Shown in pieces: positions 9,667 to 38,585 of a stretch of DNA of 64,000 nt. The notes beneath the pieces are model-generated. The model made no database searches. It saw nothing but the letters and a program-made list of their open reading frames with translations, and was not told the DNA's origin. A program made the translations under genes and the position numbers. Location of the stretch: the IMG/VR virus record IMGVR_UViG_3300022198_002714, positions 25,753-89,752 of that record; one strand, given 5' to 3'. The stretch comes from a virus. Numbering within the stretch: the stretch's first letter is position 1; every line of letters starts with the position of its first letter.

Positions 9667-9675
9667 TCAACCACC

Positions 9676-18643: not shown

Positions 18644-18655
18644 AAGACCACCCCC

Positions 18656-19228: not shown

Positions 19229-19563
19229 TCAAGTACCCCCTTTGCTTGTTGTGCCATTTCGTGAATATCTTCCCATGACATGTTGTGAAACTCTTCGTTT
19301 GTCTGCGGAATGGACGAAACCGGACCGCCTTTGAGAATGGAATTGCCCTCAATATCCATACGGAGGGGGTCAGGCATCAAGTCGTCGGTGAACGGCGTGG
19401 ACACCGGGACAAATCCGGCCTTACGAAACAGACCGGCAGGGGATGAAATCAGGCTCTTGAGTCGCTCATTCTCAGCCTTCAGGAGTGCAAGGTCGTTGTC
19501 CATGCTCTCCATCTTGGTGACAAGGACGGTCATCAGTTGCTCAGCCGATGATGCGTCTCCCAT
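19225..19563 (-). CDS. Small coiled-coil head protein; C-terminus resembles that of the scaffold
   Basis: IPQTNEEFHNMSWEDIHEMA parallels VPTTGDLANMSWDEVHTLA at the end of the protease/scaffold. Confidence 0.65.
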   Translation of the reverse strand: MGDASSAEQLMTVLVTKMESMDNDLALLKAENERLKSLISSPAGLFRKAGFVPVSTPFTDDLMPDPLRMDIEGNSILKGGPVSSIPQTNEEFHNMSWEDIHEMAQQAKGVLE

Positions 19564-19568
19564 TGGAT

Positions 19569-19925
19569 TCAACCCCAACGACCAAAGGTACCCTGAGCGG
19601 GCGAAAGGCGGGAACCACGGTGCCCGCTTGAAATGATACCGGGTAGGCGGGTACCCTCAAGGGTCACCGTCTCCGGCTCGACAACGAACTTGCGCACAGG
19701 TACACCGCCTGCAAACAAGTCGTTTGGTCCCTGAGCGTTTTGCAGAACGTCTTGGGACTTGGCAATCTCGGTGTTGAGGTCTTCAAGGAGGAAGTCGCTC
19801 AACTTGTTGACTTCGGACAAATGCTCCTTAGCAAGACTTCCATCACCGCTCTCAAGAGCGGTAAGGAAAGCCTTCTGAGCCTGTTCCATTTTTCGGGCCA
19901 TTGGGTGCATCTTCAAGAGGTCCAT
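19569..19925 (-). CDS. Hypothetical head-module protein
   Basis: 118 aa; TATA-like CTTGATAA upstream. Confidence 0.6.
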   Translation of the reverse strand: MDLLKMHPMARKMEQAQKAFLTALESGDGSLAKEHLSEVNKLSDFLLEDLNTEIAKSQDVLQNAQGPNDLFAGGVPVRKFVVEPETVTLEGTRLPGIISSGHRGSRLSPAQGTFGRWG

Positions 19926-19968
19926 GAGATTCCCTCGCTTTATGCAGTCGTGGGGCGGTTATCAAGGT

Positions 19969-23045: not shown

Positions 23046-23089
23046 TCACTTGACCATTGGTTAAAAACCCCACTCAGGAAACGGGTAAA

Positions 23090-24577
23090 TCAGGGGGTAA
23101 GCCATCCATCAAAGCCTCCTTTTTCTTCCTGATTACCACCACTAAGCCAATCGGCAAATCCGGGCATGTAGTCGTCAAGCATAACAAGCGAGCCACGGAA
23201 CTCCTTGGTACCCCAATTCGCCAAAGCAAGGGCCATTGCCAAGTCGTCGTGCGTACCCACGCTTTCCAACTTCCCGTTTTTCTGCATGCCGAAACGGTTG
23301 AGTTCTTGCTCCAACTTGTGCGTGAACTCACGGCTCCGCTCATCCCCATAGGGTGTGCGAATCTGACCTTGCTCAAACGCCATGAGCAAGGACATGAACA
23401 TGGATTCCTTACGCTGACGGGTGGTCATGAACGTCTTGATGGGAATGTCGTTGCGCATGTCTTGCAGTTCAGCAGCAAACATGCGTTGGAAGTTGTTTCC
23501 TTCAAGTTCAATCAAATCAGGTTGGAAGCGGTTGTTCATCATCAGGATTTGCCGTTTCTGCGCAGCACCGCTCATTCCACGTTCGTGATGCGCACCAATG
23601 ATTTGTTTGGTACCGTCATCGGGTAACGTACGTAACACAAGCATAGCGGTAAAGTCAGCGTTCTTGTCCGAGGCAATAGCCGTGTCCCATCCGATGAAAT
23701 GCTGACCAAAGATGCCTGTTGATTCACCTTCTTCGTCGTATTCCATTTCAGCGCGGTCAAGCAACACAAGTTCCTTGTCCCTTGCTTTTTCAAGAATGTC
23801 GTTGGGAAACATACTCGCAACGTCGTGAATCGGCTCGCACAGGTATTCACGGGAGAATTGAATAGCAGGCATGGAAAGTCGCCGTTGGTCAAGCGATTCC
23901 AAATCCCATCGCTCAGGCCACAGGGCTTTTCCTTCGTTGTTGATGGCAGGGTAGGTTTCAACGGTGAATGCCTCACGTTGCTCAAGTTCTGCGTACAGGT
24001 CGTTGTACGAAAAAGGTGTACCAACAATCATCATGCGACCGGAGTGGTGCAGCACAGGAAGCAGCACACCATAGAACCAATCAGCAGCACGTTGCAATTC
24101 AGTACCGGTCGTACCCCACAGAATGTCGTCGCACACAACCACGTTCGGGTGGAAACCACGGGTACCACCACCCACGGACTTTGCCATCATACGGCTTCCG
24201 TTTGCAAAGTCAAAGTAGGTTTTTCGCCACGGTCGCCCTTCGGGAATAAGGTGTTTCAGACACGGGGTGGTTTCGATGTTGTTGCGAATGAACCGCATGT
24301 GTTCAAGCGTCTGCTCAAGTGAGTGGCTGAAAATCATGATGTGAGTGTTGGGTTGAAACGCCGCAATCCACAGGGCATAGGACATGAAAAACACGGACTT
24401 GCCGTGGTCACGGCTTGCTTTGACACAGTAGTAGCGGTTGTCACTCAACCCTTTGTCCCAACATTCGTGATGGAACGAATAGTCATAGCCAAGAATCTCG
24501 GTGAAGAAGTACCTGAAGGACTTGGCCGACATTTCACGGTCCATCTCAAGGATGAACTGATTCATGTCTTCCTTCAT
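23090..24577 (-). CDS. terL: Terminase large subunit
   Basis: Walker A ASRDHGKS, Walker B VVVCDD, coupling motif VGTP, nuclease GWDTA and HDDLAMALALA. Confidence 0.95.
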   Translation of the reverse strand: MKEDMNQFILEMDREMSAKSFRYFFTEILGYDYSFHHECWDKGLSDNRYYCVKASRDHGKSVFFMSYALWIAAFQPNTHIMIFSHSLEQTLEHMRFIRNNIETTPCLKHLIPEGRPWRKTYFDFANGSRMMAKSVGGGTRGFHPNVVVCDDILWGTTGTELQRAADWFYGVLLPVLHHSGRMMIVGTPFSYNDLYAELEQREAFTVETYPAINNEGKALWPERWDLESLDQRRLSMPAIQFSREYLCEPIHDVASMFPNDILEKARDKELVLLDRAEMEYDEEGESTGIFGQHFIGWDTAIASDKNADFTAMLVLRTLPDDGTKQIIGAHHERGMSGAAQKRQILMMNNRFQPDLIELEGNNFQRMFAAELQDMRNDIPIKTFMTTRQRKESMFMSLLMAFEQGQIRTPYGDERSREFTHKLEQELNRFGMQKNGKLESVGTHDDLAMALALANWGTKEFRGSLVMLDDYMPGFADWLSGGNQEEKGGFDGWLTP

Positions 24578-25326
24578 CGGCTCAACCTCTTGAGCAAGTA
24601 GTCCATCGCATGTTCAAACGGCTCAGCAGAACGATTGAATCGTTGGTCGTACAGGTTGGTTTGTCCTTGGAGTAATCGCGCTGCTTCAGCGGGGTCAACA
24701 GGTGTTCCCTGCTGCTGAGCAGGCTGAGCAGGCTGAGCAGCAGCAGGCTGAGCAGGAGGTTGTCCCGGCATCGTCGGCAAAACCCCCGCTGCATGTGCAG
24801 GGTCAACAGGTGAAGCGGTAGGTGCAGCGGTAGGTGTAGCGGTAGGTGTAGCGGTTTGAGATGGACCCATACCCGGTAGCATCATTTGGTCCGGTCGGAG
24901 TGGGGAACCATCAGGAGCAGTCGCACCCGGTGCAACAGGCTCCATGTGTGGGGGTTGCTGCTGAGTAGGTGAAGATTGAGTTTGAGGTTGAGTTTGAGGT
25001 TGAGTTTCCTTTTGCCTTTCAATGAACTGCCACGGTTGGTTTGCAAGGTACTGTGCGTACGCACCCATAGGAGCAGCGAGGTTGCCCCCTTGCATTTGGT
25101 CTGCAATTTGTTGCGTGGTAGCCGCAGCAGAAAGACCGCGACCTGCCAAATCAGCAATAGCACCAAGTCTTTGCCATCCTTGCCCTTTCTGACCTGTTTT
25201 TCGTCCAAAGGCCACGCCCGCAAGTTCACGAATTGATGGGCCTTTACCACCAACCACCAACTGCAAACCGCCACTTGGTATCTGCTGCAACGCAGTTTCA
25301 GATTTACGAACGAGTACGGGCTTCAT
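24574..25326 (-). CDS. Gln/Pro/Ala low-complexity protein with C-terminal tag
   Basis: QPQT, TPTA and AQP repeats; ends AEPFEHAMDYLLKRLSR. Confidence 0.7.
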   Translation of the reverse strand: MKPVLVRKSETALQQIPSGGLQLVVGGKGPSIRELAGVAFGRKTGQKGQGWQRLGAIADLAGRGLSAAATTQQIADQMQGGNLAAPMGAYAQYLANQPWQFIERQKETQPQTQPQTQSSPTQQQPPHMEPVAPGATAPDGSPLRPDQMMLPGMGPSQTATPTATPTAAPTASPVDPAHAAGVLPTMPGQPPAQPAAAQPAQPAQQQGTPVDPAEAARLLQGQTNLYDQRFNRSAEPFEHAMDYLLKRLSR

Positions 25327-25330: not shown

Positions 25331-27475
25331 TCACCTCATACTTATTTTAATGACCTTGACGACCTCGGGTTGGACGTTGTACGACTTCGCAATTTTGTGC
25401 CAATCACCCATCGTGTGATGAATGTTGGTTACTTCCTCGGAGGTAAGCCCAACGTATGAAGCCAACTGACGGGAGGACGTGCGGGAAGAACTGAGGTGTT
25501 TCACCACGTTGTTGTCCAATTCAGCCTCGCGGTACTGCATTCGCTCAAGTGCTTTCATCACTTGGTCCATCACAGGCAGATGTATGTCTTCGCTGCGCAT
25601 GAACTGCGACAACAAAGTTTGGCGTGGGTCAGACAGGCCTGCTTGGGCGCGTGCTTCAACGGGAGACAACTCAGGCGAAGCAGCAGGCCGCTGCCGACCA
25701 CGACCTGCGAGGTCGAGCATTTCCCTGAACTGTGCAGGGGTATAGCGGCCAATGTCCGGTCGAATGGCTTGGAAATCAGCCGACAAGGGTTGAGGTGTCC
25801 CTGCGTCTGCGAGCGGCGGAGGTGATGAGCCGCTTGTTGGGAGAGGCACCGTAGCCGACGGATGAGCGGACGCCGGTACGGGTGCAGACGCAGGGACTTC
25901 TTGTGGTAGGTCACCGGGGTTGTAGTCAGCAAAGTCTTCAACCCACGCATAATCGTAATTTTCCATATGTGGCTCAAGCCTAAGTTGTGGCTCAAGCATA
26001 TCACCGTGATAATTCTGAATGTGCATAGGTCGGCCAAGCGGCTTGTTTGGTACCTCACCTACGTCTTTTCGCTCATGACCGCGAGCCACCATTTGATGTT
26101 CAGCAAGCCCTTCAATTAAACGACGATTGAGATTAACTTGCTCTTGTTCATCAGGAGCAATACTTTCTAATTGAACGTCACGCAATTTGGAACTGCCGTC
26201 TTCGTTAGCGCCAAACATGTTTGCAAGAGCCATGACACGTCCTGCCTTAGCATGCATACCTGTCCCTTTACCGCTCCCTCCCGCCGTGTAGTACTCGCTA
26301 TGCTCGTCATGAGAAAGGCCTGAATAATCTTCAAGCCTTCCCATTACGTTGTTGAACAATTTCATGAAATTGCCTCCTTGTTGGTTTGCTCGACCAAACA
26401 AAAACATCATTGCAGGCACCGATGAAATCTCCTTAATGACCGCTTGCTGATATTCAGGAGTGAGCAGGGCTTCTTGCAACGGTCGTTGGATTCTTTGTCC
26501 TTCAAACGTAAAGGTCACAGGAAAATTAGGTATGGCGTCAACATTGCCTCCACTTAGGGCTTGTCGAATATGGTCTGCCGTCCTTCTTTGCAAATCAATG
26601 GCTTCCCTGTTTTGGGGCATTGGTTTGAAAAACACATCAGGAAGATGATGCAGCACTTGCCACGTAAATGCTTCTTGTTGTTCTGCGGGTCTGAACTCAT
26701 CAGGAAACGGAACTTTTGACCCATCAATATACGCGGAGCCGGGGTCACGTTGTTCGGAGCGAATGTACTTCGGGGGTGTGGTGTAGTTCGCATATACAAA
26801 CGGTTTGTCATGCAACAAAAATCTGACATTATGCGCAAGCATGTCAATTACTTCAGGTGAAAAATGCTGCTCAAGCAGTTGTCGCAATTCGACGTTGAAG
26901 GGTAAGTAGTACGATTCAATGAACTTCCCATTTGGGTTTTCAGCGGCGTTGTTGTTTGTCAGCAACGTAATCTTGGTGCCGTCTTGCGAACGAGTTGGTC
27001 GAGTTGTCTTGTCAGGATGCATTTCCACCTGTTTTGGTAGGGGTGCAGAACGCAACTTTCGCCATTGAAGGCTCTCAAACGGTGCCAAATGGTGTTTTTC
27101 GTTTGGGTGCTTTTGGTTGAACAAGTCAATTGCTTGATTGAAAAGATTGACAACATCAGGAGATGAAATAGAAGGAACATGCCCTTGCAATGCACGAAGC
27201 AAGCGGTATGCAGCCGCATCAATACCGTGTTGGAAAAATCGAGGGCCGTTTGGGTGGTCCCTTTCACGGGTGTGGTAGTAGTAAATGCCGCCATCGTCTT
27301 TGGCCCATTCTCCATCATACACGTTGCCTGCACCATCGTGGGCAAAGGCAGGTAAGTCCAAGTTTCCCATTGGCTTGAAGGCCGCAGGTGGAGGGTTTCG
27401 CATGACGAACCTACCGTTAGGTCCTGAGTGAATCAGACCCCACGCCTTCTGAATGATGAACGAATTGTACATCAT
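25331..27475 (-). CDS. Large hypothetical protein (candidate internal virion protein)
   Basis: 714 aa, coupled; Pro-rich linker and HTH-like C-terminus. Confidence 0.7.
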   Translation of the reverse strand: MMYNSFIIQKAWGLIHSGPNGRFVMRNPPPAAFKPMGNLDLPAFAHDGAGNVYDGEWAKDDGGIYYYHTRERDHPNGPRFFQHGIDAAAYRLLRALQGHVPSISSPDVVNLFNQAIDLFNQKHPNEKHHLAPFESLQWRKLRSAPLPKQVEMHPDKTTRPTRSQDGTKITLLTNNNAAENPNGKFIESYYLPFNVELRQLLEQHFSPEVIDMLAHNVRFLLHDKPFVYANYTTPPKYIRSEQRDPGSAYIDGSKVPFPDEFRPAEQQEAFTWQVLHHLPDVFFKPMPQNREAIDLQRRTADHIRQALSGGNVDAIPNFPVTFTFEGQRIQRPLQEALLTPEYQQAVIKEISSVPAMMFLFGRANQQGGNFMKLFNNVMGRLEDYSGLSHDEHSEYYTAGGSGKGTGMHAKAGRVMALANMFGANEDGSSKLRDVQLESIAPDEQEQVNLNRRLIEGLAEHQMVARGHERKDVGEVPNKPLGRPMHIQNYHGDMLEPQLRLEPHMENYDYAWVEDFADYNPGDLPQEVPASAPVPASAHPSATVPLPTSGSSPPPLADAGTPQPLSADFQAIRPDIGRYTPAQFREMLDLAGRGRQRPAASPELSPVEARAQAGLSDPRQTLLSQFMRSEDIHLPVMDQVMKALERMQYREAELDNNVVKHLSSSRTSSRQLASYVGLTSEEVTNIHHTMGDWHKIAKSYNVQPEVVKVIKISMR

Positions 27476-29475
27476 CCCATATGCCCCCGTTGTGAGACAA
27501 GATAGCCCGCCGGGTCAAGACCAAACTGCTTAGCGTCTGTCTCGTCGTTTTCTGTCGGTCCTTCAGGGTCCGACTCATTTTTGGGACTTACACCGGCAGG
27601 ATGAGCAGGAACGTGACCGTTCTCCATTGCGCTTTGTGTACCTGCTTTTTCCAACTTATTTACTCGCTCCAATGCAGCCATGATGCGGCGCATAATGTTG
27701 AGTCGCTCAGTTGTGCGAGCGGCTCGACCCTTGAGCATCTCACTCTCGGTACGCTCTTCACTCATCATAATGGACGAGGGAGCAGATGGAGCAGATGGAG
27801 CAGATGGGATGCCGGGGACCATGGACGATTGCGGTGAAGGCATCATTGGCGGCATGGGTGGCATCGGTGGGCGTGGCATACGGGGCATACGGGGTTGATG
27901 GACTCTCAATGGACGAAGTGCGGGTTGCCTCATTTGTCCTGCTTGACCGGGCAAGAGTCCGCTGAGTCTTCCTGCTCCGGTGGGTCCGGCATAACTGCCT
28001 CGCTCGGCGTAGCGGGCGTGGGGTGAGAAAGTTGTGCGTACATTGCCGAGAATCTTGCGAGCCTCAGATTGGCCCATGTACTGACGGTACTTTTGCGGGT
28101 CTTTCGACATGGGTTGTTTCGTCGCAATGCCACGGTGACTCATCTCCACAGATAGGTGAGGTAACATCAACCCCGTTTTCTTTCCACCCTTGATACCACG
28201 CATGCGAGCGCGGAAGCGCCGCATGGTAGCACCGCTTGGGTCCATGCCGCCGGGTGGCCGCTTAAATTGTCCTGTGGAGGGACGAAACTCGCGCCGCGCT
28301 TCACGACGGCGACGGGCTTCGATGGTACCGGGTGTTTCACGTTTCAACAACGCAGACCAAGCATCTTCCATTGGTTCAGCACGGTTGAGGTCTTGCCATC
28401 CATAGCCAAACATAGGATTTTTGTTTTCCATGATGCGAGTGTTTGCCTCGTCAAAATACGGTTCACGCTCTTCTGCTGAAAGATTGTCAAAGTCAGGATG
28501 CATCATTATGTCAGCGAGTGCTTGGTGGCTAAGGTTCATGTGCGGTCGTTCTGCCAAACCTTCCATCATCATGCTTTGACGCAGTTTTTCTTGTTGCCGC
28601 TCATGAGCAATAGCATCGTCTTCTTTCAGCAACGTGGACCAAGCATCTTTCATTGGTTCACTTGCCAATTTTTTCCATTGAGAAGGGTGTACCGCATGCG
28701 CTCTTGTTACGTCACGGGCCATGTGGTCAGTTCTTGGCGTTGTTCTCCCTAAATCAAAATCAATTCCACCGGGCATTTCCAATTGACTGTCTTGCCATGC
28801 GTCAAACATCATCTCCCAAATTGAATTGTCAATGTCTTCTTGACTCAATTCAGGAAAATCGCCGTACATTCGTTGCATACCTCTTTGCATGAATGGATTA
28901 CCTTGAAGCCTTAGCCACTCAATTTTTTCATCATTGGACATACCTTCAATGTAATCCCACAAAGAATTGGTGACGCCCATCAAATGCTCATCTGCTTCAT
29001 CATTCCAAATCTGCTCATCAGGATGAATGTAGTCTTCGTCTTCTTTCAGCAACGTGGACCAAGCATCTTTCATTGGCTCGCTCATAAAGAGCGGTACAGG
29101 ACCGGTCATTGCGCTACCGGTACCTGTCTTGGCCCCCGTAGCCATGTCAAGCATATGACCGCGACTGCCCGCAGGACCGCCCTGCAATCCGAGTTCTCGC
29201 TCTAAGTCCTGCTTGTTGCCGTCGTCCTCACCCATTGGTGACTCGGCACCGTCAAGAGGCAACTTTGCGCTGACCTTGATGTGCTTGATTTTGCTGCGCT
29301 TTTCTTTGCGCTCTTGTTCACGCTGCTTCCGCTCTTCGCGGCGGCGTTCCATGTCTTCCGGGGACGTGGGCGAGTACTTGTCCTCGTCCTCGTTAGCCGA
29401 CGAGTACATCTTGTCGGACTCGCTACGCGGCGAGTACATACGAGTGTCCGAGCCGCGTCCCATCATCGGCATCAC
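27472..29475 (-). CDS. Modular protein with three tag repeats
   Basis: SEPMKDAWSTLLKED twice and AEPMEDAWSALLKR; acidic and basic modules between them. Confidence 0.75.
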   Translation of the reverse strand: MMPMMGRGSDTRMYSPRSESDKMYSSANEDEDKYSPTSPEDMERRREERKQREQERKEKRSKIKHIKVSAKLPLDGAESPMGEDDGNKQDLERELGLQGGPAGSRGHMLDMATGAKTGTGSAMTGPVPLFMSEPMKDAWSTLLKEDEDYIHPDEQIWNDEADEHLMGVTNSLWDYIEGMSNDEKIEWLRLQGNPFMQRGMQRMYGDFPELSQEDIDNSIWEMMFDAWQDSQLEMPGGIDFDLGRTTPRTDHMARDVTRAHAVHPSQWKKLASEPMKDAWSTLLKEDDAIAHERQQEKLRQSMMMEGLAERPHMNLSHQALADIMMHPDFDNLSAEEREPYFDEANTRIMENKNPMFGYGWQDLNRAEPMEDAWSALLKRETPGTIEARRRREARREFRPSTGQFKRPPGGMDPSGATMRRFRARMRGIKGGKKTGLMLPHLSVEMSHRGIATKQPMSKDPQKYRQYMGQSEARKILGNVRTTFSPHARYAERGSYAGPTGAGRLSGLLPGQAGQMRQPALRPLRVHQPRMPRMPRPPMPPMPPMMPSPQSSMVPGIPSAPSAPSAPSSIMMSEERTESEMLKGRAARTTERLNIMRRIMAALERVNKLEKAGTQSAMENGHVPAHPAGVSPKNESDPEGPTENDETDAKQFGLDPAGYLVSQRGHMG
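28616..29076. repeat. 41-bp exact direct repeat (28616-28656, 29036-29076); diverged third copy ~28342-28377
   Basis: tcgtcttctttcagcaacgtggaccaagcatctttcattgg twice, 420 bp apart. Confidence 0.9.
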
Positions 29476-30152
29476 TCCACCCCCATGTTCTCCATCAATT
29501 GCGCCTTAAGTCGCGCCCATACTTCAGGACTCTCCTTGCTCAATTCGACTTGCAAGATGTTGAAGGTCTGATTGACCTGCTGCGTGTCGCTTTGCGCACC
29601 CCATTGGTCTTGGAATCGAAGCAGGTCTTTGACTGTTTCACGAACTTCTTTGTGCAGCGACACCGCATCGCGCACGAAACCGTCTTCGTGAACGCTACCT
29701 TCGTCAAGCAATTCGCTCAACTTGTGGTTGAGCCGCTCAGCGTTGCTTCGCAACAAATCAATCTCGGTCCCTGCACGCAGGGCGACTTCGATGGCAGCCG
29801 TCTTTTGCACAAGCGGCTGAAAATGATTCTTCATGTGTTGATAGACCACGTTTTCGCTGACTTCTAATTCCTGAGCAATAAGGTCGCTATTGCCTGTGTT
29901 AAAGTACATCTCTTCGTAGGCCGCACGCTGATGAGACGTACAGACAGGACAACCGGAGTTGGATGCGAGGTGAAACTCGCCCATGTGGTTGCGGTAGTGC
30001 CGCTCGGTGGTGTTGCTTCGCCACTCCTTGTCTTTGTCCAACTGCTTTGGTGAAATGTGACCGTCGAGTAGGCCTTGTTCAAGCCCATCCCGTTCTTCGT
30101 CCATGCAGAAAGCGCATGACCGTTTGTACACACGGTCGTCGCTCATGTGCAT
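29472..30152 (-). CDS. Putative terminase small subunit (duplicated CxxC...HxxxH HTH plus coiled coil)
   Basis: CAFC...RHYRNH and CPVC...QHMKNH repeats followed by helical hairpin and QVNQTFNIL; upstream of TerL. Start at 30152 or 30146. Confidence 0.5.
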   Translation of the reverse strand: MHMSDDRVYKRSCAFCMDEERDGLEQGLLDGHISPKQLDKDKEWRSNTTERHYRNHMGEFHLASNSGCPVCTSHQRAAYEEMYFNTGNSDLIAQELEVSENVVYQHMKNHFQPLVQKTAAIEVALRAGTEIDLLRSNAERLNHKLSELLDEGSVHEDGFVRDAVSLHKEVRETVKDLLRFQDQWGAQSDTQQVNQTFNILQVELSKESPEVWARLKAQLMENMGVE

Positions 30153-30183
30153 TCTTAAGTGAGTCTGCTTCAAAAGCGTTCTG

Positions 30184-30426
30184 TCATCGAATGATGCGAG
30201 CATACACACCGGTCAACGCAAGAACGCTACCAAACAAGCCAACTACGTAGTAGGACATGGAAGATGCAGGCAAATTGTTACCCTTGAATAAAATGATAGC
30301 CGTGAGGACAAGAATAGCCGAAATGAACTGAACCATAATCATGTCAACAATGACGCTGCGCTCAGGGTTCAACACGTCAAGAGTGGTCGTGGCAATTCCA
30401 CGTGGCATGTACGATTTATCCTGCAT
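30184..30426 (-). CDS. Small two-TM membrane protein
   Basis: Hydrophobic segments VIVDMIMVQFISAILVLTAIILF and YYVVGLFGSVLALTGVYA. Confidence 0.7.
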   Translation of the reverse strand: MQDKSYMPRGIATTTLDVLNPERSVIVDMIMVQFISAILVLTAIILFKGNNLPASSMSYYVVGLFGSVLALTGVYARIIR

Positions 30427-30427
30427 A

Positions 30428-31057
30428 TCATCGTCCTCCGGTAATAAAGGAGCGGGCGGTGTTGCCGATGAAGCCGCCCGCCTTCTCCACCATGCCTTGG
30501 TCCATTGCAGCAGCCAATGCTGAGTTCATCATGGACTGACTCGCCATGTTGTTGAGTTGCATTTGCTGCCCTTCAGCGTTCTGAATGTTCTGCTGTGCAG
30601 CGGACTGCAAAGCCGTAAAGTCAGCCTTGACGTTTTCAGCACTCATGGTCTGCAAATGCTGCGGCAAGGAGGTAATCTCCATTTTGAGACTACCATCGTC
30701 GTCGGCCACAAACACCGCATTCTTGAGAATCTCCAAGACCGAGAAAGAGACGATGTTGTTGAACATCTCAACCAAAACCCCCATTTGCGGGCTTGCAATA
30801 AATCGGTCCACCGGTACAATGCCACGAAGCAGCATGATTTGCATTTCAAGTTCACTCGGTGGAGCCATTGGCTGCTGTGGTACACCGGCACCGGTAGCAA
30901 AGGCTCCCATGGCTCCCATCTGTTGAGGTTGTTGTCCCCATGCTTGTTGTTGCGGCCACGGATTCTGTTGTGCGGGAATAGGTTGACCCCAACCGGTCAC
31001 TCCAAGACTCAACGAACCGCCCTGCGGTTGTGGTTGTTGACTGTTCAATCTAAGCAT
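30428..31057 (-). CDS. Gln/Met-rich protein
   Basis: Likely start MLRLNSQQ at 31057; coupled within the GTPase operon. Confidence 0.65.
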   Translation of the reverse strand: MLRLNSQQPQPQGGSLSLGVTGWGQPIPAQQNPWPQQQAWGQQPQQMGAMGAFATGAGVPQQPMAPPSELEMQIMLLRGIVPVDRFIASPQMGVLVEMFNNIVSFSVLEILKNAVFVADDDGSLKMEITSLPQHLQTMSAENVKADFTALQSAAQQNIQNAEGQQMQLNNMASQSMMNSALAAAMDQGMVEKAGGFIGNTARSFITGGR

Positions 31058-31058
31058 G

Positions 31059-31991
31059 TCACTCAACCACCGGAAGCATCTGTTGCTCATGAGGTTTTTC
31101 ACCGCTGAGCATGGATTGGAAAGCAGCGGTAGGTTGGTTTGCCATTGCTAACTCTTGTTGGAAAATCCGCAGGTCAAAGGCAATCATTGTCACGTCGTTC
31201 AAACCCGTAGCCGGGTTTTCGTAGTACATAATGGAGATACCCTTTGTCTTCTTGCTATCTTTTTCCAATTCAGCAAAAAACGGCTCGTACTTCTGCAAGA
31301 AGGATGGCGTAGGGTCCTTGACCTTAACCGCCGCTACGGGAACGGTCACCATTGAAACACCCTTCTTCATGCGGTCACGCAAACGTCGAGGGTTGGCCTC
31401 GCTTACCTTGTCTTCTTCAGCCTCCCACTTGCAAAGCAGGTGATAGAGGTGAAGATGCTCAGGGCAATAGGTACCTCGCATCTTGCGACCGCTTGTCACT
31501 TTGTCCTTGGCGACAAAGGCTTCAGCCTGTCCGGTAACGGGGTTTTTCCAATAGTACTCCCACAGGCTTACTCCGGTTTCATCATCCATGATTTTGTTGT
31601 ACAAATTGTCAACTTGAATAAGAGCGGCACAATCGCAGCCGTCAATAACACAGACGTGGGCTTGCTTGTCGTAGCGGTACTTACGACCCAAAAGGGTACG
31701 CACAGGGTTGAGCAGGTGTCGCTTGGTAGGTGTTAGCAAACGGTACGCTTGTCGAATGTCCTTTCTGCGAGCCTTTAGGGGGTCAGGATGGCGGCTTGGA
31801 TAGAAGTTGACTTTGGGGACTTGCAAATTGGCTCCGGCAGCAACTTCCTGCATAGCCGCTTGAGCCGTAGCCTGTGCCATCAACGCTTCGTGGGTTAGCA
31901 TAGAGTTGCCCTGTTGCGAAAGTGCGTACACGCTCGCCACGTTGAGGTCACCAAGGTTTTGCTGCGGTGCTTGACCACGAAACGGAATCAT
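31059..31991 (-). CDS. Hypothetical protein with split Zn site
   Basis: CVIDGCDC...YCPEH. Confidence 0.65.
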   Translation of the reverse strand: MIPFRGQAPQQNLGDLNVASVYALSQQGNSMLTHEALMAQATAQAAMQEVAAGANLQVPKVNFYPSRHPDPLKARRKDIRQAYRLLTPTKRHLLNPVRTLLGRKYRYDKQAHVCVIDGCDCAALIQVDNLYNKIMDDETGVSLWEYYWKNPVTGQAEAFVAKDKVTSGRKMRGTYCPEHLHLYHLLCKWEAEEDKVSEANPRRLRDRMKKGVSMVTVPVAAVKVKDPTPSFLQKYEPFFAELEKDSKKTKGISIMYYENPATGLNDVTMIAFDLRIFQQELAMANQPTAAFQSMLSGEKPHEQQMLPVVE

Positions 31992-32161
31992 TCTTCTTCC
32001 ACCACCCGCATGTGTGCCGAATACGTGTTTTCCTCACGAATGACGTTCCATTCAACGATGCTGCCCTTCTTCAATCGCATCAACTTAGCAATCCACAACG
32101 GAATTACAGTCCGAAGGGACTGACTTGCCGAGCCGACTGACGCTACTTTTGTTTTATCCAT
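31988..32161 (-). CDS. AbrB/MazE/SpoVT-type DNA-binding protein
   Basis: KVASVGSASQSLRTVIPLWIAKLMRLKKGSIVEW swapped-hairpin signature. Confidence 0.75.
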   Translation of the reverse strand: MDKTKVASVGSASQSLRTVIPLWIAKLMRLKKGSIVEWNVIREENTYSAHMRVVEEE

Positions 32162-32166
32162 GTTTC

Positions 32167-32883
32167 TCACACCGTCAACAGGTTGACCATTGTTGGTTCC
32201 ACGTTCCATCCAATTCGGGTCGCCATAAACGACCTGCGGGTTGGAATACCCGCTTTTTGCAAGCGAATAAGGTCATCTCGGAAGGGGTCGAAGATAGGAT
32301 GCTCTCCAATTCGCCCTTCAGCGTACAATTTGGCCGCAGTATCGTCAAAATACCGGTCAGCCTTGTTTGCAACAAGCATAATCAGACTTGGAGCGTATGA
32401 TTTACCGTTCCATCGGCTTTTGAGTGTCCGATATCGGTAATTTCGACCCGTAATTGCGTCAACAAGGAAGCGAAAGCCTGCAATTTGCTGAATGGCATCG
32501 TTTCCGCCCTTAATTGCTCGGTCATCAAACAAATAGACGACTGCACGGACTTGCCGGGACACCATATCGTCAATCCACAGGTTCCAAAACCGTTCTTGAC
32601 CACCAACGTCGGCAGAAAACACAACACGCTTCTCGCCTTCCCAACTTACACGCTTGCGAGAAGGTTTTGGCAGCAGGTAACGCCCGAGAATCTTGACATG
32701 TTCGGTCCGTTCCTCTTCAGGAATCTCTTCCATTTCCCCCGGAGTGGTCATGTAGCGGTCAAGGGTGGTTTTGCCGGTCAGTCCTGCACCGTAAATGCCG
32801 ACTTTGCGCGGCCTCCACGAATTGTACAGGCTCTTGCCCCACACCATTGCACCGACCAATGCGGTTCCCGCAGGCTCAACCAT
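32167..32883 (-). CDS. Small Ras-superfamily GTPase, Arf-like
   Basis: G1 GAGLTGKTT, G2 Thr (ERT), G3 DVGGQ, G4 NKAD, G5-like FMAT; N-terminal hydrophobic/amphipathic helix. Confidence 0.85.
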   Translation of the reverse strand: MVEPAGTALVGAMVWGKSLYNSWRPRKVGIYGAGLTGKTTLDRYMTTPGEMEEIPEEERTEHVKILGRYLLPKPSRKRVSWEGEKRVVFSADVGGQERFWNLWIDDMVSRQVRAVVYLFDDRAIKGGNDAIQQIAGFRFLVDAITGRNYRYRTLKSRWNGKSYAPSLIMLVANKADRYFDDTAAKLYAEGRIGEHPIFDPFRDDLIRLQKAGIPTRRSFMATRIGWNVEPTMVNLLTV

Positions 32884-33142
32884 TGACCCACCCCGTTAGC
32901 CAAGAAGCCAAATCGCCCATCTTGAGCCAAAACCACTTTACGGTGCTTTCCCATACGCTGCGGTCAGTTCTTAATTCGTACAGGCTTGTCATTAAGACGG
33001 CTATGCCGCTGAACACAAGTGTACGAATCCAACCAAGTCCTTTTTCGTAGTACGTGTCAAGGGTGTTTTGTGTATGCATTGCCCTCAAGGTGGCTTCCGT
33101 GGAATCATCCACGGGCGTCTTAAAGATTCGACCCATGTTCAC
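32876..33142 (-). CDS. Small membrane protein
   Basis: GLGWIRTLVFSGIAVLMTSLY TM plus Trp-rich amphipathic C-terminus. Confidence 0.65.
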   Translation of the reverse strand: MNMGRIFKTPVDDSTEATLRAMHTQNTLDTYYEKGLGWIRTLVFSGIAVLMTSLYELRTDRSVWESTVKWFWLKMGDLASWLTGWVNG

Positions 33143-33702
33143 TCGTCGTTTCTATACCGCTTGTCAGGCGTGCCGTCTTTTTTCAACGGCACTTCTTCCT
33201 TGACGCCAAGATTGACAGGTTGATTGACTTCAGCAGTATGCTTGGGTGCGCCTGTCATTTGTGCCATGTCGTACTGACTCACCAACGACGGTGCGCCTCC
33301 TTGGACACCCCAACTTGGAGGCATCTGACCGGGGTTGGCTTCCATCCACCGCAGTTCACGCTCAAGTTGGGCTTCCTGCATCCGCAGTTCCATCTCAGCG
33401 CGTCGGTTGTCGAAGGTGTTCTGCATGTTGCGGAAACGGTACTGCCGCTCTCGCTCCATGTTGGTTGCCGCAACACGTTCCTGCATGTTCTGCTCAAAGA
33501 ACATCTTGAACACGTAGTAGGCAACGCCCTGCACAAAGAATGCGGCCATGGCGTAGGTGAAACCGTTCACCCACGCATCATCGTTGTTCAGCCACATGCC
33601 TGCATCAAACAGGCCAATGGCAAGTCCGACAAGGGCTGACTGCGAGATAATCAGACCCATCAGACGAATCTCGGCTTCGTTGGACTGAGGCATAGAGGAC
33701 AT
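33139..33702 (-). CDS. Two-TM membrane protein with cytoplasmic coiled coil
   Basis: Two hydrophobic helices, then MERERQ...ELRMQEAQLEREL; first gene of the operon. Confidence 0.7.
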   Translation of the reverse strand: MSSMPQSNEAEIRLMGLIISQSALVGLAIGLFDAGMWLNNDDAWVNGFTYAMAAFFVQGVAYYVFKMFFEQNMQERVAATNMERERQYRFRNMQNTFDNRRAEMELRMQEAQLERELRWMEANPGQMPPSWGVQGGAPSLVSQYDMAQMTGAPKHTAEVNQPVNLGVKEEVPLKKDGTPDKRYRNDE

Positions 33703-33752
33703 GCTGCTCAGGCTTGGTCACAGGAATGGTCATCTTAAGGCTTGCGAGTCAA

Positions 33753-33909
33753 TAGTCACTTTTGTCACCACTTACTTCACCAAAATGAGTATTCACCATT
33801 GTACTCTTACACTCTCTCTATTTATTGAGAGTAGTACCTATGAAATAATGACAACTCGTTTTGTCATTTACATGAGTAAGGTGGTGACAAAAGTGACAAA
33901 AGTGACTAC
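33753..33909. other. Palindromic non-coding element A (origin-like)
   Basis: 17-bp perfect IR GTCACTTTTGTCACCAC (33755-33771)/GTGGTGACAAAAGTGAC (33881-33897), 9-bp GTGACAAAA periodicity, AT-rich core shared with 43212-43247. Confidence 0.6.
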
Positions 33910-35438
33910 TCCACTTTGTCAATCTGCCTCAACGTACCACGATTCTTGAAATGACGGGCACGGTTGTCGTGTTCACTTTCGAGGGTCAGTTTGTTACCTT
34001 GAGTGTGGCTCACGTCCATGTGGTCGTGGCTTCCCATAATTCCACGGCGACGACGCTCACGGTTGAGTTCTTCACGGTACTTGACGCGCTCAGGAGAAGA
34101 TTCGTACTGTTTGTCGTATTCCAACTTGTGCCGCATGGCTTCGGGACTTACACGCTCTTTGAGCAACCGCATAGCGATGTCCATTGGTTCGCCTGTTTGA
34201 ACTTCTTGTGGTGTATAATATACAGAATAAATAGTAGGGTTTTCTTCCGTACCCCATTTACCTCTATGAATAGGGGTCGCTCCCTGCCTTTTATCAAAGT
34301 CATCCCACACCTCTTGGTGCAATTGTTCGGCTGAGCAATTAGGATTTATTGATAGATTGCACATATCAGTAAATCCTTCAAAATGAACAGTATGGTCACC
34401 TAATCTTTCAACACCTGTATCATCCGGTGTTAATTGATTAAGAAATGCCTCAACATGTTGTAGTGGGTTATCATCTTTAAGCAGACGGAAGGCCAAGTCC
34501 ATTGGACTTGCACTCATCTGAATGTCACCATACTGCGGTTGCGACATGTCAAAGCCCTGTCCAACTTGCTTTGCAGCCATGGCAGGATGCATGCCGCCCT
34601 GCACAAGTTGCGTAAATTGGTCGTAGTGCATAGGGTGAACGTCGTACATGTTTGCCGTGTTGAGTTCAAACTGCTCTCGCGCAGGAGCGGTGGGGTCACG
34701 CGCGTACTGCAAAATCTGCTGAAGTTCGTCCTGTGGTGGGGGACGAGGTTCTTGATATGACATGTTGGTACCGCTTACTCCGGTTTTTCGCCTTAAATTG
34801 AGCAACAATTCTTCCAATTCGTCACTTTTAGGTTGGCTTTCAGTCCTTGTAGGCCCTCCAATCAAAACAGGTAAAGCATCAGCAGCAATTTTTTTCTGTG
34901 CATAAGTACTCAAATGGTCCAAAGGAGTACGATAACCGAAGTTTTCATACGGATTTTTCAAACTACTAAAGGTGGTACCTACACTACTGTCATAGAGTTC
35001 GGCTTTTTCCGGCTCAACATACCTTGACAAAAAATTGGACATTGCTTGCCTCATTGCATCACGGTATTGTTTTGCATTTGCTTCTTGCAATTCTTTTTCC
35101 TTTGCTTCTATGTCCAAAGTGTAATCTGCGTTTTGCAAAGCATCAAGCGTAGCACGCCAATTTTTCATCGCTTTAGACTGTTCACGAAGTGCTTGCTGCG
35201 ATGGAAGCATCCTTTCAGTTTCCGGCGTGGTCACCAAAGGCTCAAACTTGGATGACAAATCTTGGACTGAAACATCTTTCTGATTTATGCGGTCTCTAAA
35301 CACTCCATTAGTTGCTTGCGCCGATAAGTCGTTTTGTGCGTAAATAGCCTGAAGGAGAGCCTTTAGGCGGGCAACGTGTTCGTCAGATGATAGGGGCATC
35401 TGTGCCGCATCAGCAAGTTTCTCGCTAAATGAAGGCAT
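33906..35438 (-). CDS. Modular protein with two tags; last module HNH-like
   Basis: PMDLAFRLLK and PMDIAMRLLK; C-terminal KYREELNRERRRRG...DVSH...DNRAR resembles small phage HNH-like proteins. Likely start MPSFSEK at 35438. Confidence 0.7.
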   Translation of the reverse strand: MPSFSEKLADAAQMPLSSDEHVARLKALLQAIYAQNDLSAQATNGVFRDRINQKDVSVQDLSSKFEPLVTTPETERMLPSQQALREQSKAMKNWRATLDALQNADYTLDIEAKEKELQEANAKQYRDAMRQAMSNFLSRYVEPEKAELYDSSVGTTFSSLKNPYENFGYRTPLDHLSTYAQKKIAADALPVLIGGPTRTESQPKSDELEELLLNLRRKTGVSGTNMSYQEPRPPPQDELQQILQYARDPTAPAREQFELNTANMYDVHPMHYDQFTQLVQGGMHPAMAAKQVGQGFDMSQPQYGDIQMSASPMDLAFRLLKDDNPLQHVEAFLNQLTPDDTGVERLGDHTVHFEGFTDMCNLSINPNCSAEQLHQEVWDDFDKRQGATPIHRGKWGTEENPTIYSVYYTPQEVQTGEPMDIAMRLLKERVSPEAMRHKLEYDKQYESSPERVKYREELNRERRRRGIMGSHDHMDVSHTQGNKLTLESEHDNRARHFKNRGTLRQIDKVE

Positions 35439-35439: not shown

Positions 35440-36765
35440 TCAATACGTCCTAAGTTTCTTGTACGCAGCAAGCGCAGATTCTATCATTTCAGGAGACAAT
35501 TTATCCAAACCTTGTGGGAACGAGCCATGCCTCATGATACCAAGTGGTGTGTTACTGTATATTGCTTTTGATGCCAACTGACCCGGAATGAACTCTATAT
35601 TCGATGTAATCTCTTTAACCGATTTATCGTCTGCCTGACGCCTCATAGCATCAATCAACTCAAGTTTTTCTTCGGTCGTCATCTCACGACCTCCGGGTTG
35701 AAGGGGAAAACCTTCCTTGTCGTACGCTCCTTCAAGTGCAGGATGAATGGCGGACATTGGAAATTGCGAAGCGTATTCTCGCCATGCTGCTTGTTGTGGA
35801 CTGACTATTGTTTTGTAAGGATTATCCCTTCTATCAAGCGGATTCAATCTTCGTAGCCTCTCTTCAATTGCTGTTGGCTGCATTCGTTCATATGTCATCC
35901 AATCCGTATCTTCAGACTTAATTCTCCAATTTGTTGCATTAGGCGTATCGCTTTTCCATGAACCACTTGCACGTAAAGGCGTCAAACGACTGTTATCAAT
36001 GGGTGTCATCGCTACGTATTCGGCGGACTCACCCCCCTTGAATCGTGGCCGTTCTTGTACCAAATCTCCGGGGTAAAACCCAAGGCCGCGAACGCCAAAC
36101 AGATTTTCTTTCTTTTCAGAAAGAACCTCATTCATTTCTTTTACATTGGGTGGAACAAGAAACTGCATGGGCATGCCTTCTTCTGTCTTATATCTGTAAG
36201 GTAAAGGGTTGCTCACGTTTTCCTCATAAGAACCAACGTAACTTCGTCCACTCATAGGGATGAGTTGACCACCGGGAGTGGTCATGACACGCGATGCAAT
36301 GTCTCCTGTGAAGCGGTATGCGTTGATGGGTGGGATTGAGCCGGGAATTACCGTGTTGGTCTGCGGGTCAAGCCACCGCTCGGTGGTCAAACCCGGAATC
36401 AGTTGCGGTAGTTTCATCTGCGTGGTAAAACGCACGTTGGGCGGGCTTTCCCTACCGGCTTCCCAAAGCATACTGTTTGGGTCAAAATCAGCCTGAGCAT
36501 TCGCTTCGCCTATGTTGAGAATATCTCTCACGGTATTACCGTAAGTGTAGCCAAAATCCGGACGGCGGGTAAAATCATCAGGGTCAATTGAGTCTTCATA
36601 CACCGTTTCCATGGTCGGAAACTCAAGCGATTCAGTAGGAACGTGAATGGGACCTAAGTACTCACCCCTGTACCTGTTGCGCGGATTTTCAGGAAAACCA
36701 AAGTCGCCGGTAAGGGTCGTTTGCCGCTTCAGCAAACGCCATGCCGACTCCATTGGGTCCAACAC
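35440..36765 (-). CDS. N-terminally tagged protein, possible ADP-ribosyltransferase-like domain
   Basis: Starts MLDPMESAWRLLKR; AYR...SYVGS...ESAEYV..TPI in R-S-E order (weak). Confidence 0.6.
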   Translation of the reverse strand: MLDPMESAWRLLKRQTTLTGDFGFPENPRNRYRGEYLGPIHVPTESLEFPTMETVYEDSIDPDDFTRRPDFGYTYGNTVRDILNIGEANAQADFDPNSMLWEAGRESPPNVRFTTQMKLPQLIPGLTTERWLDPQTNTVIPGSIPPINAYRFTGDIASRVMTTPGGQLIPMSGRSYVGSYEENVSNPLPYRYKTEEGMPMQFLVPPNVKEMNEVLSEKKENLFGVRGLGFYPGDLVQERPRFKGGESAEYVAMTPIDNSRLTPLRASGSWKSDTPNATNWRIKSEDTDWMTYERMQPTAIEERLRRLNPLDRRDNPYKTIVSPQQAAWREYASQFPMSAIHPALEGAYDKEGFPLQPGGREMTTEEKLELIDAMRRQADDKSVKEITSNIEFIPGQLASKAIYSNTPLGIMRHGSFPQGLDKLSPEMIESALAAYKKLRTY

Positions 36766-37739: not shown

Positions 37740-38585
37740 TCAACAATGCGTAGTGCAGACTTCCGGCTGAGGGTTCCGCAATCCGTACGCCAATTCGCTT
37801 GCTGAGCGCAGTAATCCAGTATCTATGCCGGTTTTGAAACCCCATGCGTGCAAATGATTCACAAGCGTTTCAGTTGACAAATTGGCTCCGCTGCCTTTAG
37901 CAAACGGGCAACCGCCGAGTCCGCCGATGCTGCTATCGAACTCAGTCACACCTTCAAGCAACGCTTTGCGCACCAACATGAGCGCACGCTCTTCCTTGTC
38001 ACGGTGGTGCAGGTGCAGCGCGACGTTCAATCCCTCATCGCGGGCCATTTCCACCATCCACGGCAATTCGTGCGGCGCAGCCGCGCCCACGGTGTCAGCA
38101 AAAACCACGGTGTTACCAAACATTTTGGCGTCACGTAAGCATGAGCGCATGGTGTTCTCGCTGACAAGCCCGCTATCAGGGCTACCAAACGCCATCGAGA
38201 GGTACACGCGCACGTTTTCCTTGGGTACATCTTGCATAAACGTGCGGTACCGTAGCACAATTTCATCCCGCGTAGCACGCATGTTGTTGAGGTTGAACGT
38301 CTCGCACGGCGAAAATACCACATTGATTTTTTCCACGCCGCAGGCTTTGGCTCGCTGCATGCCGTGTGCATTCATGACCAACGCCGAGCCACGACCGCTG
38401 AACACTTCTTCGCCGTTTGCCATCTGCGGCAGCAGTTTTGGATTCGGAAAACTAACCTCTTCGATGTTGTCGAATCCGGCCACGTACAGGCGGTGAATCA
38501 ATTCGCGCCGCTGCTCCACCGGCACCACGTGCGGCAGGGCTTGAAGTCCGTCTCTTGGGCCAACTTCGTACACCGTCACACGCAT
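37740..38585 (-). CDS. hmgL: Hydroxymethylglutaryl-CoA lyase (DRE-TIM family), auxiliary metabolic gene
   Basis: EVGPRDGLQ, ADTVG, LHLH, DSSIGGLGGCPFAKGSGANLSTE; TTAAAT box 22 nt upstream. Confidence 0.9.
   Translation of the reverse strand: MRVTVYEVGPRDGLQALPHVVPVEQRRELIHRLYVAGFDNIEEVSFPNPKLLPQMANGEEVFSGRGSALVMNAHGMQRAKACGVEKINVVFSPCETFNLNNMRATRDEIVLRYRTFMQDVPKENVRVYLSMAFGSPDSGLVSENTMRSCLRDAKMFGNTVVFADTVGAAAPHELPWMVEMARDEGLNVALHLHHRDKEERALMLVRKALLEGVTEFDSSIGGLGGCPFAKGSGANLSTETLVNHLHAWGFKTGIDTGLLRSASELAYGLRNPQPEVCTTHC

Follow-up and report, generated by a model that had tools for sequence, protein, structure and literature searches.

What is a small GTPase resembling those of the Arf family doing among the late genes of a tailed virus, packed between small, presumably membrane-embedded proteins? 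The question is raised by a locus in the IMG/VR virus record IMGVR_UViG_3300022198_002714, of which 64,000 nucleotides (positions 25,753 to 89,752 of that record, referred to here as the window) were analyzed. An initial reading of the sequence had described seven tightly packed minus-strand genes, and all seven open reading frames were recovered. The genes and their surroundings are as follows.

33703-33905, no strand assigned: intergenic region upstream of the cassette, 203 nt, with an inverted repeat
g1, 33139-33702, minus strand: 187 aa, core gene 1, predicted coiled-coil protein with two transmembrane segments
g2, 32876-33142, minus strand: 88 aa, core gene 2, predicted protein with one transmembrane segment
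g3, 32167-32883, minus strand: 238 aa, core gene 3, divergent Arf/Sar-like small GTPase
g4, 31988-32161 (open reading frame to 32209, 73 aa), minus strand: 57-aa protein of the SpoVT/AbrB (MazE) type, lineage-specific accessory
g5, 31059-31991, minus strand: 310 aa, core gene 4, orphan with a putative Cys/His metal site
g6, 30428-31057 (open reading frame to 31102, 224 aa), minus strand: 209 aa from Met16, core gene 5, Gln-rich orphan
g7, 30184-30426, minus strand: 80 aa, accessory, two hydrophobic segments
downstream neighbour, 29472-30209, minus strand: 245 aa, Cys/His-rich, possible helix-turn-helix (HTH), outside the core

The genes leave hardly any space between each other. The junctions are either overlaps, such as those that g2 forms with g1 (4 nt) and with the GTPase gene (8 nt), or gaps of 1-5 nt after correction of the starts of g4 (Met17, 32161) and g6 (Met16, 31057), which were set from family alignments; the conservation of g4 begins after Met17. 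The only clear boundary of the array is the 203-nt intergenic region, a probable promoter or regulatory region in which the arms of the inverted repeat read AGTCACTTTTGTCAC... and ...GTGACAAAAGTGACT. On the 3' side, g7 overlaps the next gene and overlapping genes continue to the large terminase gene (terL) about 5.6 kb away, so that both the number of seven genes and the 3' limit of the operon are arbitrary. Of the seven genes of the original prediction, g4 and g7 are accessory rather than core. The downstream neighbour may be a small terminase (phrog_2538 at E 0.018; YlxM HTH at E 0.0013, below the cut-off). It was found in 80 of 80 close loci and in the distant loci L166-L168 and is thus co-conserved with the cassette in two clades.

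The virus itself is a magrovirus, a tailed archaeal virus of about 100 kb that infects Marine Group II (Poseidoniales), abundant archaea of the ocean. This identity follows from three lines of evidence. For the HK97-type major capsid protein (MCP) encoded in the window, the only matches were to tailed viruses of haloarchaea (31-35%) and to a Methanofastidiosa virus. An SNF2 helicase is encoded in the window and a chaperonin at the start of the same viral record, both of them named magrovirus traits (PMC5434244). Finally, a Poseidoniales single-cell genome contains a 106-kb contig with the cassette and an MCP 66% identical to that of the window. A family-B DNA polymerase was not found in the window's record, which is 83% complete, and is present in the relatives G202 and G203.

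By its motifs and its modelled fold, the 238-aa protein g3 is a genuine small GTPase, for which nucleotide binding can be predicted. The G motifs that had been noticed at the outset, DVGGQ and NKAD among them, and the N-terminal segment are all in place: GAGLTGKT (G1, residues 32-39), DVGGQ (G3, 92-96), NKAD (G4, 173-176) and a G5-like MAT, preceded by a helix at residues 5-23 in the model built from the alignment. G1 (GxxxxGK[ST]), G3 (DxxG) and G4 (NKxD) follow each other in the order of the Ras superfamily (TRAFAC class) within a single G-domain fold of about 170-240 residues. Together with a Trp 11 residues after the G3 Asp (D+11, Trp103 in g3), these three motifs occur in 132 of 132 distinct family sequences; no Trp precedes the G3 Asp in g3. 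Of the Arf form of G3, which had been proposed from DVGGQ, the DxGG part is shared by nearly all family members, but the catalytic Gln that follows is not conserved. This position is Gln in about half of the 132 sequences and Glu in about 40%, which makes a canonical Arf-GAP cycle doubtful.

An AlphaFold2 model of g3 (pLDDT 88, pTM 0.86) lies nearest to solved structures of Arf, Arl, Sar1 and Asgard ArfR proteins, and a structural comparison made without Foldseek returned Arf6, Sar1 and SRbeta as the top matches. In profile searches, the Asgard protein GerdArfR1 (8OUN) was matched at E 4.5e-6 in an alignment that takes in the N-terminal helix, and Arl8 was matched at 5e-4. The fold and profile rankings thus bear out the suggestion that g3 is Arf/Sar-like rather than of the translation type. 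The distance is nevertheless large. Compared with eukaryotic Arf1/Arf6, Arl1/Arl3/Arl6/Arl8 and Sar1 and with the Asgard proteins GerdArfR1 (8OUN/8OUM) and HodArfR1 (8OUK), g3 differs in being encoded by a virus of a non-Asgard archaeon, in the missing conservation of the Gln and in an identity of only 14-18%. The window copy had no Pfam match at E up to 1, and the Arf family model PF00025 gave weak, sub-threshold matches in 24 of 54 relatives (best E 8.7e-4), with Roc, MMR_HSR1 and SRPRB appearing about as frequently. Further features specific to the family are two insertions seen in the model, one of about 13 residues that separates switch I from strand 2 and one that follows NKxD, and invariant residues outside the classical motifs (R110, D120, R122, P165 and H195). 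A segment comparable to the helix ahead of strand 1, a trait of the Arf family, is found in all clades; its amphipathicity is modest (muH 0.13-0.56), a point against the membrane reading proposed below. SRbeta, the membrane-anchored Arf-like subunit of the SRP receptor, differs in several respects: in the window's g3, the N-terminal segment has neither the length nor the hydrophobicity for a transmembrane helix to be scored, an SRX/longin-type partner was not detectable in the virus, and the viral context is a late-gene cassette and not protein targeting.

The g3 family has only 75 representatives among 1.84 billion. The cassette is widely distributed, the viral contigs numbering in the hundreds (466 GTPase and 1158 g5 clusters at 90% identity). 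Small GTPases had been called uncommon in tailed viruses, in agreement with a tblastn search of 50,697 phage records, which gave no match. In structure, the viral proteins most similar to g3 all come from giant viruses. According to their annotations, the Rab, Ran and Ras GTPases of giant viruses (e.g., mimivirus Rab, 5XC5) are close copies of eukaryotic host families, whereas g3, encoded by a tailed virus of a prokaryote, forms a separate family for which no host homologue was found. In 201 Poseidoniales genomes, the sole match of the family profile was a viral contig, so g3 does not appear to be a recent host gene. Judged from sequence, the g3 family is a separate, virus-only and very divergent group of Arf-like GTPases.

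The GTPase does not travel alone. Five core genes, g1-g2-g3-g5-g6, move together as a unit, and their order is the same across four deep clades of viruses, even where GTPase identity falls to about 31%. Of 80 close loci, 79-80 keep this order. All 71 loci of the P0144 clade with enough flank have a colinear core, and the core is also found in L082-85 and in L167/168. Between clades, the MCP is 40% and the GTPase about 33% identical. The neighbours of the cassette vary: in the window it stands in a terminase-side array, in L093 (P0144 clade) it separates the MCP from the structural genes that come later, and in L085 it adjoins a thermosome gene. The expected co-conservation hence reaches far beyond close relatives for the core, but not for the AbrB-type gene g4 and the two-segment protein g7, which are lineage-specific.

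By hydropathy analysis, g1 and g7 each have two hydrophobic segments and g2 has one, the same counts as first proposed, which suggests membrane association of these proteins. The segments hold their position across the four clades despite about 20% sequence identity. In g1, segments at about residues 16-38 and 48-69 are followed by a charged, coiled-coil-like stretch and a basic C-terminus; no relative was found in Pfam or PDB. g2 has a central segment at about residues 35-57 and a Trp-rich C-terminus. Both were found in 79 of 80 close loci, and again in distant clades (three of them in the case of g1). g7 is present in the window's clade and in the L167/L168 clade; its place is taken by four other small hydrophobic proteins in L085, and no counterpart was seen in L093, where a 478-aa open reading frame follows g6.

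The two soluble core proteins, g5 and g6, were found in 80 of 80 close loci and in distant clades, and no relative of either was found in Pfam or PDB that could point to a coat, GEF or GAP role, or indeed any relative at all. The zinc-site protein of the original prediction corresponds to g5, in which C114, G118 and C176 never vary, H179 hardly does, and another Cys usually lies close by. A metal site is plausible from these conserved residues but is not backed by any known protein family. g5 has 1158 database relatives, and among the 120 matches listed there was no Pfam domain or informative name. In g6, a Gln/Asn/Met/Gly-rich N-terminal part precedes a conserved domain of about 90 aa at the centre of the protein, after which come a Gln-rich stretch and a C-terminus rich in Gly. 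The assignment of g4 as AbrB-type, with a SpoVT/AbrB swapped-hairpin domain, holds for its family, in which PF04014 was matched by 17 of 18 orthologues (best E 2.4e-6). It does not extend to the window copy, which had no match; solved AbrB regulators were matched weakly by the g4 profile (E 1.2). The gene was located by tblastn in 57 of 80 close loci; in L068 only 16 nt separate the GTPase gene from g5, and g4 was not detected between these two genes in the three distant clades.

Our best guess, a tentative one, is that this magrovirus encodes a small-GTPase cassette that acts on the membrane late in infection, perhaps in egress. Binding to membrane and partners and roles in lysis, vesiculation or exclusion are suggested by hydrophobic segments, gene order and analogy. 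In such a scheme, g3 would cycle at the host membrane on the cytoplasmic side, anchored through its N-terminal helix, through the two membrane proteins or through the helix and the proteins together, and its GTP form would recruit or activate the two soluble orphans. Late in infection, the GTP switch would time or drive remodelling or perforation of the membrane, through which virions could leave the murein-less host. The window's lineage would have gained the AbrB/MazE-type DNA-binding protein and the extra two-segment protein. A more specific version, possible but rather doubtful, takes the core for the missing egress machinery of one major archaeal tailed-virus group, acting by GTP-timed rupture or deformation of the membrane via the recruited Cys/His and Gln-rich proteins.

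The egress machinery of archaeal tailed viruses has been called 'completely uncharacterized', and archaea lack a murein wall (PMC10791045). Families of lytic enzymes were not found among the cassette genes or their neighbours, and the missing holin/endolysin pair means little because the host is an archaeon. The cassette resembles holin-based phage lysis cassettes in its cluster of small proteins, predicted to span the membrane once or twice and in part to carry charged tails (a long one in g1, none such in g7), its late position and its movement as a unit. It differs in that no endolysin is present or expected in the virus and that no similarity to holin families was found in Pfam or PHROGs. 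To our knowledge, phage lysis cassettes do not contain a GTPase. The cassette was not found described in the searchable literature.

The egress reading is challenged by the position of the cassette among morphogenesis genes, with which an assembly role would fit equally well. The cassette might form a membrane-anchored platform that tethers or times head assembly, packaging or head-tail joining, the membrane itself not being acted on. In the two clades with recognisable structural genes, it lies inside or beside the structural and packaging block: in the window it is followed, via overlapping frames, by the possible small terminase and then by the large one, and in the P0144 clade it comes after protease, MCP and small head genes. 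The co-conservation of the terminase-like gene downstream points the same way. However, where the cassette stands with respect to the head, tail and terminase genes varies from clade to clade, and a recurrent peptide tag on flanking proteins is absent from the cassette proteins. A weaker objection comes from one cassette-bearing 110-kb record (79% complete), in which no homologue of MCP or TerL was found. We know of no tailed virus whose assembly, where studied, needs membrane proteins or a small GTPase, and a platform of this kind seems unlikely.

The host membrane might also be reprogrammed without lysis, by vesiculation, non-lytic release or a change of the cell surface that excludes superinfection. 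Small membrane proteins are typical of exclusion genes. A precedent is ArvA-ArvB-ArvC (OapABC) of Haloferax volcanii, a euryarchaeal system in which the Arf-like ArvA, together with ArvB and the Zn-ribbon protein ArvC, drives the formation of vesicles (PMC10927574). Like the cassette, this archaeal operon joins an Arf-like GTPase to small partners, the membrane action being seen in Haloferax and suggested here. However, no cassette protein matches ArvB (OapB, PF09846) or ArvC (DUF2072), and the ArvA operons, as far as they are described there, lack transmembrane partners. OapB/ArvB and the Arf HMM were both found in 0 of 101 Poseidoniales genomes, a count to be read with the fact that the control genomes for OapB yielded no loci either; with sampled hosts lacking such matches, the virus would need to bring its own system. 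Against this reading, the cassette proteins gave no match to OapB or another Pfam family at E up to 0.1, nor did 30 members of the g5 family at E up to 1, and 5027 defence-system models remained without a match. Furthermore, lysis of the host is the rule among those non-enveloped tailed viruses of archaea that have been studied (PMC10791045). A gene for exclusion is in most cases a variable accessory; the core, in contrast, matches the capsid gene in its depth of conservation, and the chances of a non-lytic role appear small.

Two further readings give less weight to the membrane. g3 could be a nucleotide-binding scaffold with little or no GTPase activity, structural in a complex with the orphan proteins, as the Glu, Asp or His at the catalytic position in about half of the family and the invariant residues and insertions outside the classical motifs might suggest. 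The presence of G1, G3 and G4 in every family sequence instead speaks for selection acting both on nucleotide binding and on the Gly that senses the gamma-phosphate, and other active small GTPases without the Gln, such as Rap, use residues supplied in trans, which makes a mere scaffold very improbable. Hardly likely at all is a cytoplasmic switch in which the GTPase and g4 control viral or host expression or translation beside unrelated membrane genes: the place of g4 between the GTPase gene and g5 in the window's lineage and the weak matches of g3 relatives to MMR_HSR1 and EF-Tu G-domains would fit, but g4 is missing from three of four clades and part of the window's own, overlapping codons tie g1 and g2 to the GTPase gene, beside which they stay in every clade, and Arf, Sar and SRbeta rank above translation-type GTPases.

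The putative membrane-acting GTPase cassette offers a concrete, widely distributed and deeply conserved candidate gene set for the egress of archaeal tailed viruses, and its genes can be expressed and assayed without cultivation of the host. The known range of Arf-like GTPases is widened by a family confined to viruses, with neither an Arf-like gene nor ArvB detectable in the hosts sampled, which bears on the origin of GTPase-driven membrane systems before eukaryotes. If the proposed role is true, release of these viruses would be timed by GTP in a manner without counterpart in bacteriophage lysis, and an Arf-type membrane switch would operate outside eukaryotes and Asgard archaea.

The ORF map bears out the seven co-directional minus-strand ORFs at 30184-33702 that had been described in the original prediction. 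The genes, called here g1 to g7, are closely packed: there are overlaps of 4 nt between g1 and g2, 8 nt between g2 and g3 and 4 nt between g4 and g5, and the other junctions are gaps of 1-5 nt, given the starts of g4 and g6 placed by family alignments. The main features in window coordinates are:

33752-33905: long inverted-repeat arms, built on GTCACTTTTGTCAC; the intergenic region upstream of g1 measures 203 nt
33702 down to 30184, minus strand: g1 to g7, with the GTPase as g3
32161: start of g4 (Met17)
31057: start of g6 (Met16)
29472-30209: ORF downstream of g7, overlapping it
23090-24577: large terminase, reached by further overlapping genes and followed by the portal, protease and capsid genes

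The seven packed ORFs thus stand as proposed, but the array has no downstream boundary, so that the number seven is a convenient cut and not the limit of an operon. A peptide about 11 residues long, P[MF]x[DE]AWxxLLK[R], recurs in several unrelated ORFs flanking the cassette, and three of its copies lie within the 667-aa ORF at 27472-29475. It is absent from all seven cassette genes and occurs at the following window sites:

24586-24621
28339-29076
34158-34505
36724-36756
7612-7644

Comparison of the loci bearing relatives of the cassette revealed which of its genes belong together.

Gene content of cassette loci and identity of their GTPases to that of the window
Close IMG/VR loci (80): GTPase 63-98% identical; g1, g2, g5, g6, g7 and the downstream gene in order in 79-80; g4 in 57 of 80 (tblastn), some of the others having no room for it
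Loci L167 and L168: GTPase about 38% identical; g1, g2, GTPase, g5, g6, g7 and the downstream gene kept; g4 missing
Loci L082-L085: GTPase about 31% identical (about 39% for P0127, the protein with which they were fetched); g1, a g2-like gene, GTPase, g5 and a g6-like gene; four other small hydrophobic proteins after the g6-like gene and a thermosome gene just upstream
P0144 clade: GTPase 29-34% and major capsid protein (MCP) 40% identical; g1, g2, GTPase, g5 and g6 colinear within 3.5 kb in 71/71 loci with sufficient flank, the remaining nine being cut off by contig ends

In the P0144 clade the cassette follows the protease gene, the capsid gene and the small head genes and is not near the terminase. 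Across the clades the conserved unit is thus a five-gene core of g1, g2, GTPase, g5 and g6, which stays together while its neighbours change, as functional cassettes do. Co-conservation of a seven-gene module, as originally predicted, holds for this core across clades but not for g4 and g7, which are accessories. One of the distant loci, L085 (IMGVR_UViG_3300020601_000007, 110 kb; locus 4820-6481), carries its thermosome gene immediately upstream of the cassette, encodes a family-B polymerase and resembles magrovirus groups reported without structural genes.

The 238-aa GTPase carries the motifs GAGLTGKT, DVGGQ and NKAD. None of the seven cassette proteins, the GTPase included, gave an above-threshold match in Pfam, PHROGs or NCBIfam searches, and the GTPase gave no match at all. 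A search among 1.84 billion representative proteins returned 75 matches at E <= 0.001, which, judged by sequence (29-81% identity to the query; full-length or fragments), look like the GTPase's own family. Conservation was scored on 132 distinct full-length sequences drawn from 167 loci. All 132 keep G1, DxxG and NKxD, and also a Trp located 11 residues past the G3 Asp; this Trp aligns with the Trp of Arl8A and GerdArfR1, and Arf, Sar and G-alpha have one at this position as well. The residue after DxGG (position 96) is Gln in about 52% of the 132 sequences and Glu in about 40%, the rest having Asp or His. The predicted DVGGQ motif is correct for the window copy but does not define the family, in which Gln and Glu alternate. 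Together with the invariant residues R110, D120, R122, P165 and H195, this alternation hints at a non-canonical hydrolysis mechanism.

In a phmmer search against the PDB, the single sequence retrieved just a 32-residue stretch of Arl8A (E 1.1). The family profile matched GerdArfR1 (8OUN), an Asgard Arf (bioRxiv 10.1101/2024.02.28.582541), with an E-value of 4.5e-6 and the N-terminal helix within the alignment, and gave weaker matches to Arl8 (5e-4), Rab33B (9e-4) and KRas (0.02). AlphaFold2 modelling from the single sequence was unusable (pLDDT 34), and a model from a 54-sequence alignment (pLDDT 88, pTM 0.86) was used instead. In it, a helix at the N-terminus (5-23) precedes a G domain of six strands, and there are two insertions specific to the family. 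Fold and profile ranking agree with the initial assignment to Arf-like small GTPases, more precisely Arf/Sar-like, and rule out a translation-type GTPase. By the Pfam criterion the protein falls outside the Arf family, so that the most fitting label is a putative new family of the Arf/Sar clade. A search for fused forms of greater length found none for the GTPase, which counts as weak evidence, and a scan for P0130 found no viral contig.

Among the partner proteins, g1 has two conserved hydrophobic segments, continues with about 50 residues of charged, coiled-coil-like sequence and ends in a basic tail; g2 has a single central hydrophobic segment and g7 two such segments. These segments hold their position where sequence identity drops to about 20%. 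Assignments of g1 to SLATT_1 (E 0.033) or DUF350 were dropped, being far below the cut-offs and without family-profile support. The identification of g4 as an AbrB-type regulator proved sound at the family level: it is a 57-aa SpoVT/AbrB (MazE-type) protein, and 17 of 18 orthologues match PF04014. In g5, Cys114, Gly118 and Cys176 do not vary and His179 hardly does, with a second Cys usually 2-6 residues past the first, which makes a Cys/His metal site plausible. Its relatives number 1158 at 90% clustering, and a Pfam domain or informative name was found in 0 of 120 among the matches listed; an ESM Atlas search with g5 gave no usable match. In the g6 protein, a Gln/Asn/Met/Gly-rich N-terminal part precedes a conserved domain some 90 residues long, and the end is Gly-rich. 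Profiles of g1, g5 and g6 retrieved nothing significant from the PDB, nor did members of these families from Pfam; g5 and g6 are orphans. A complex prediction for the GTPase with g5 scored 0.00 without controls and neither supports nor opposes binding.

The record (89.7 kb, rated 83% complete by IMG/VR), of which the window covers 64 kb, can be placed by its other genes. The window encodes a T4-type large terminase, a portal, a prohead protease and an SU10/HK97-type capsid protein, and among 50,697 phage records the latter matches only the haloarchaeal tailed viruses HVTV-1 and HCTV-1/5 (31-35%) and one Methanofastidiosa virus. An SNF2 helicase gene is present in the window, and left of it the record opens with a Cpn60/TCP1 chaperonin gene fragment (21-791 of the record; HMM positions 229-488, E 4.7e-61), so that the gene is truncated by the end of the contig. 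Both are traits named by the first magrovirus paper (PMC5434244). The Poseidoniales single-cell genome AG-422-I20 contains a 106-kb contig with the cassette, a chaperonin, and capsid and terminase genes 66% and 44% identical, respectively, to those of the window. On this evidence we interpret the virus as a magrovirus infecting Marine Group II archaea; it was found in metagenomes from 10 studies, of estuary, lagoon and "freshwater"-labelled origin. A bacterial host, suggested by the GcrA-like HTH, DUF932 and T4 endonuclease V matches, was rejected on the evidence of MCP, chaperonin and single-cell genome. Contigs of 8 kb with the whole cassette also occur in MAGs labelled Maricaulis and Parvibaculum (L166, NZMJ01000140.1; L168, NZQM01000063.1). 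They are most likely viral DNA mis-binned with bacteria and were set aside as host evidence.

Other genes of the record include two giant ORFs, one of 5520 aa just left of the window (record positions 8688-25250, minus strand) and one of 1958 aa whose sole match, to an ATP-dependent DNA ligase, is weak (E 6e-4). The accessory genes encode an HMGL-like enzyme, two tyrosine-phosphatase-like proteins, a DUF932 protein, a T4 endonuclease V-type pyrimidine-dimer glycosylase and an HTH protein with a GcrA-like match; several belong to families known better from bacteria and their phages. The window coordinates are:

12767-18643: 1958-aa ORF
37740-38585, 51242-52465, 59123-59659, 59686-60717, 62200-62706 and 55217-55816: the six accessory genes, listed jointly

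The GTPase is not a host gene in the 201 Poseidoniales genomes scanned, in which its profile found the viral contig only. Neither the Arf nor the ArvB (OapB) HMM had a match in 101 of these genomes, while controls responded. The phage records contain no gene for the GTPase, for g5 or for the neighbour downstream of g7, and the best viral structural look-alikes of the GTPase all come from giant viruses of eukaryotes, in line with the earlier remark that Ras-superfamily GTPases are uncommon in tailed viruses. A GTPase is not mentioned in the magrovirus papers examined (PMC5434244 included), and no description of the cassette was found in the literature searched on magroviruses, archaeal viruses or GTPases.

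By its motifs, the GTPase is a nucleotide-binding, Arf-like switch, and in the clades examined it is always encoded alongside the small hydrophobic proteins g1 and g2 and the soluble orphans g5 and g6. The position of the cassette among morphogenesis genes suits a role in assembly as well as membrane remodelling; a capsid-specific role is weakly disfavoured by L085, on which no MCP or TerL (large terminase) homologue was detected over 110 kb of a record that is 79% complete. The non-conservation of the catalytic Gln would speak against membrane remodelling. No cassette protein matched the PADLOC defence models or resembles a known defence protein. In the favoured reading, membrane remodelling, the switch would work on the cytoplasmic side of the membrane, where its N-terminal helix, g1/g2 or the two together would anchor it, and g5 and g6 would be recruited in one of its nucleotide states. 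Late in infection, the cassette might then, speculatively, remodel or breach the membrane. This reading is attractive because the means by which archaeal tailed viruses leave their hosts are described as completely uncharacterized (PMC10791045) and because a precedent exists in Haloferax, where the Arf-like ArvA drives vesicle formation with ArvB and the Zn-ribbon protein ArvC (PMC10927574).
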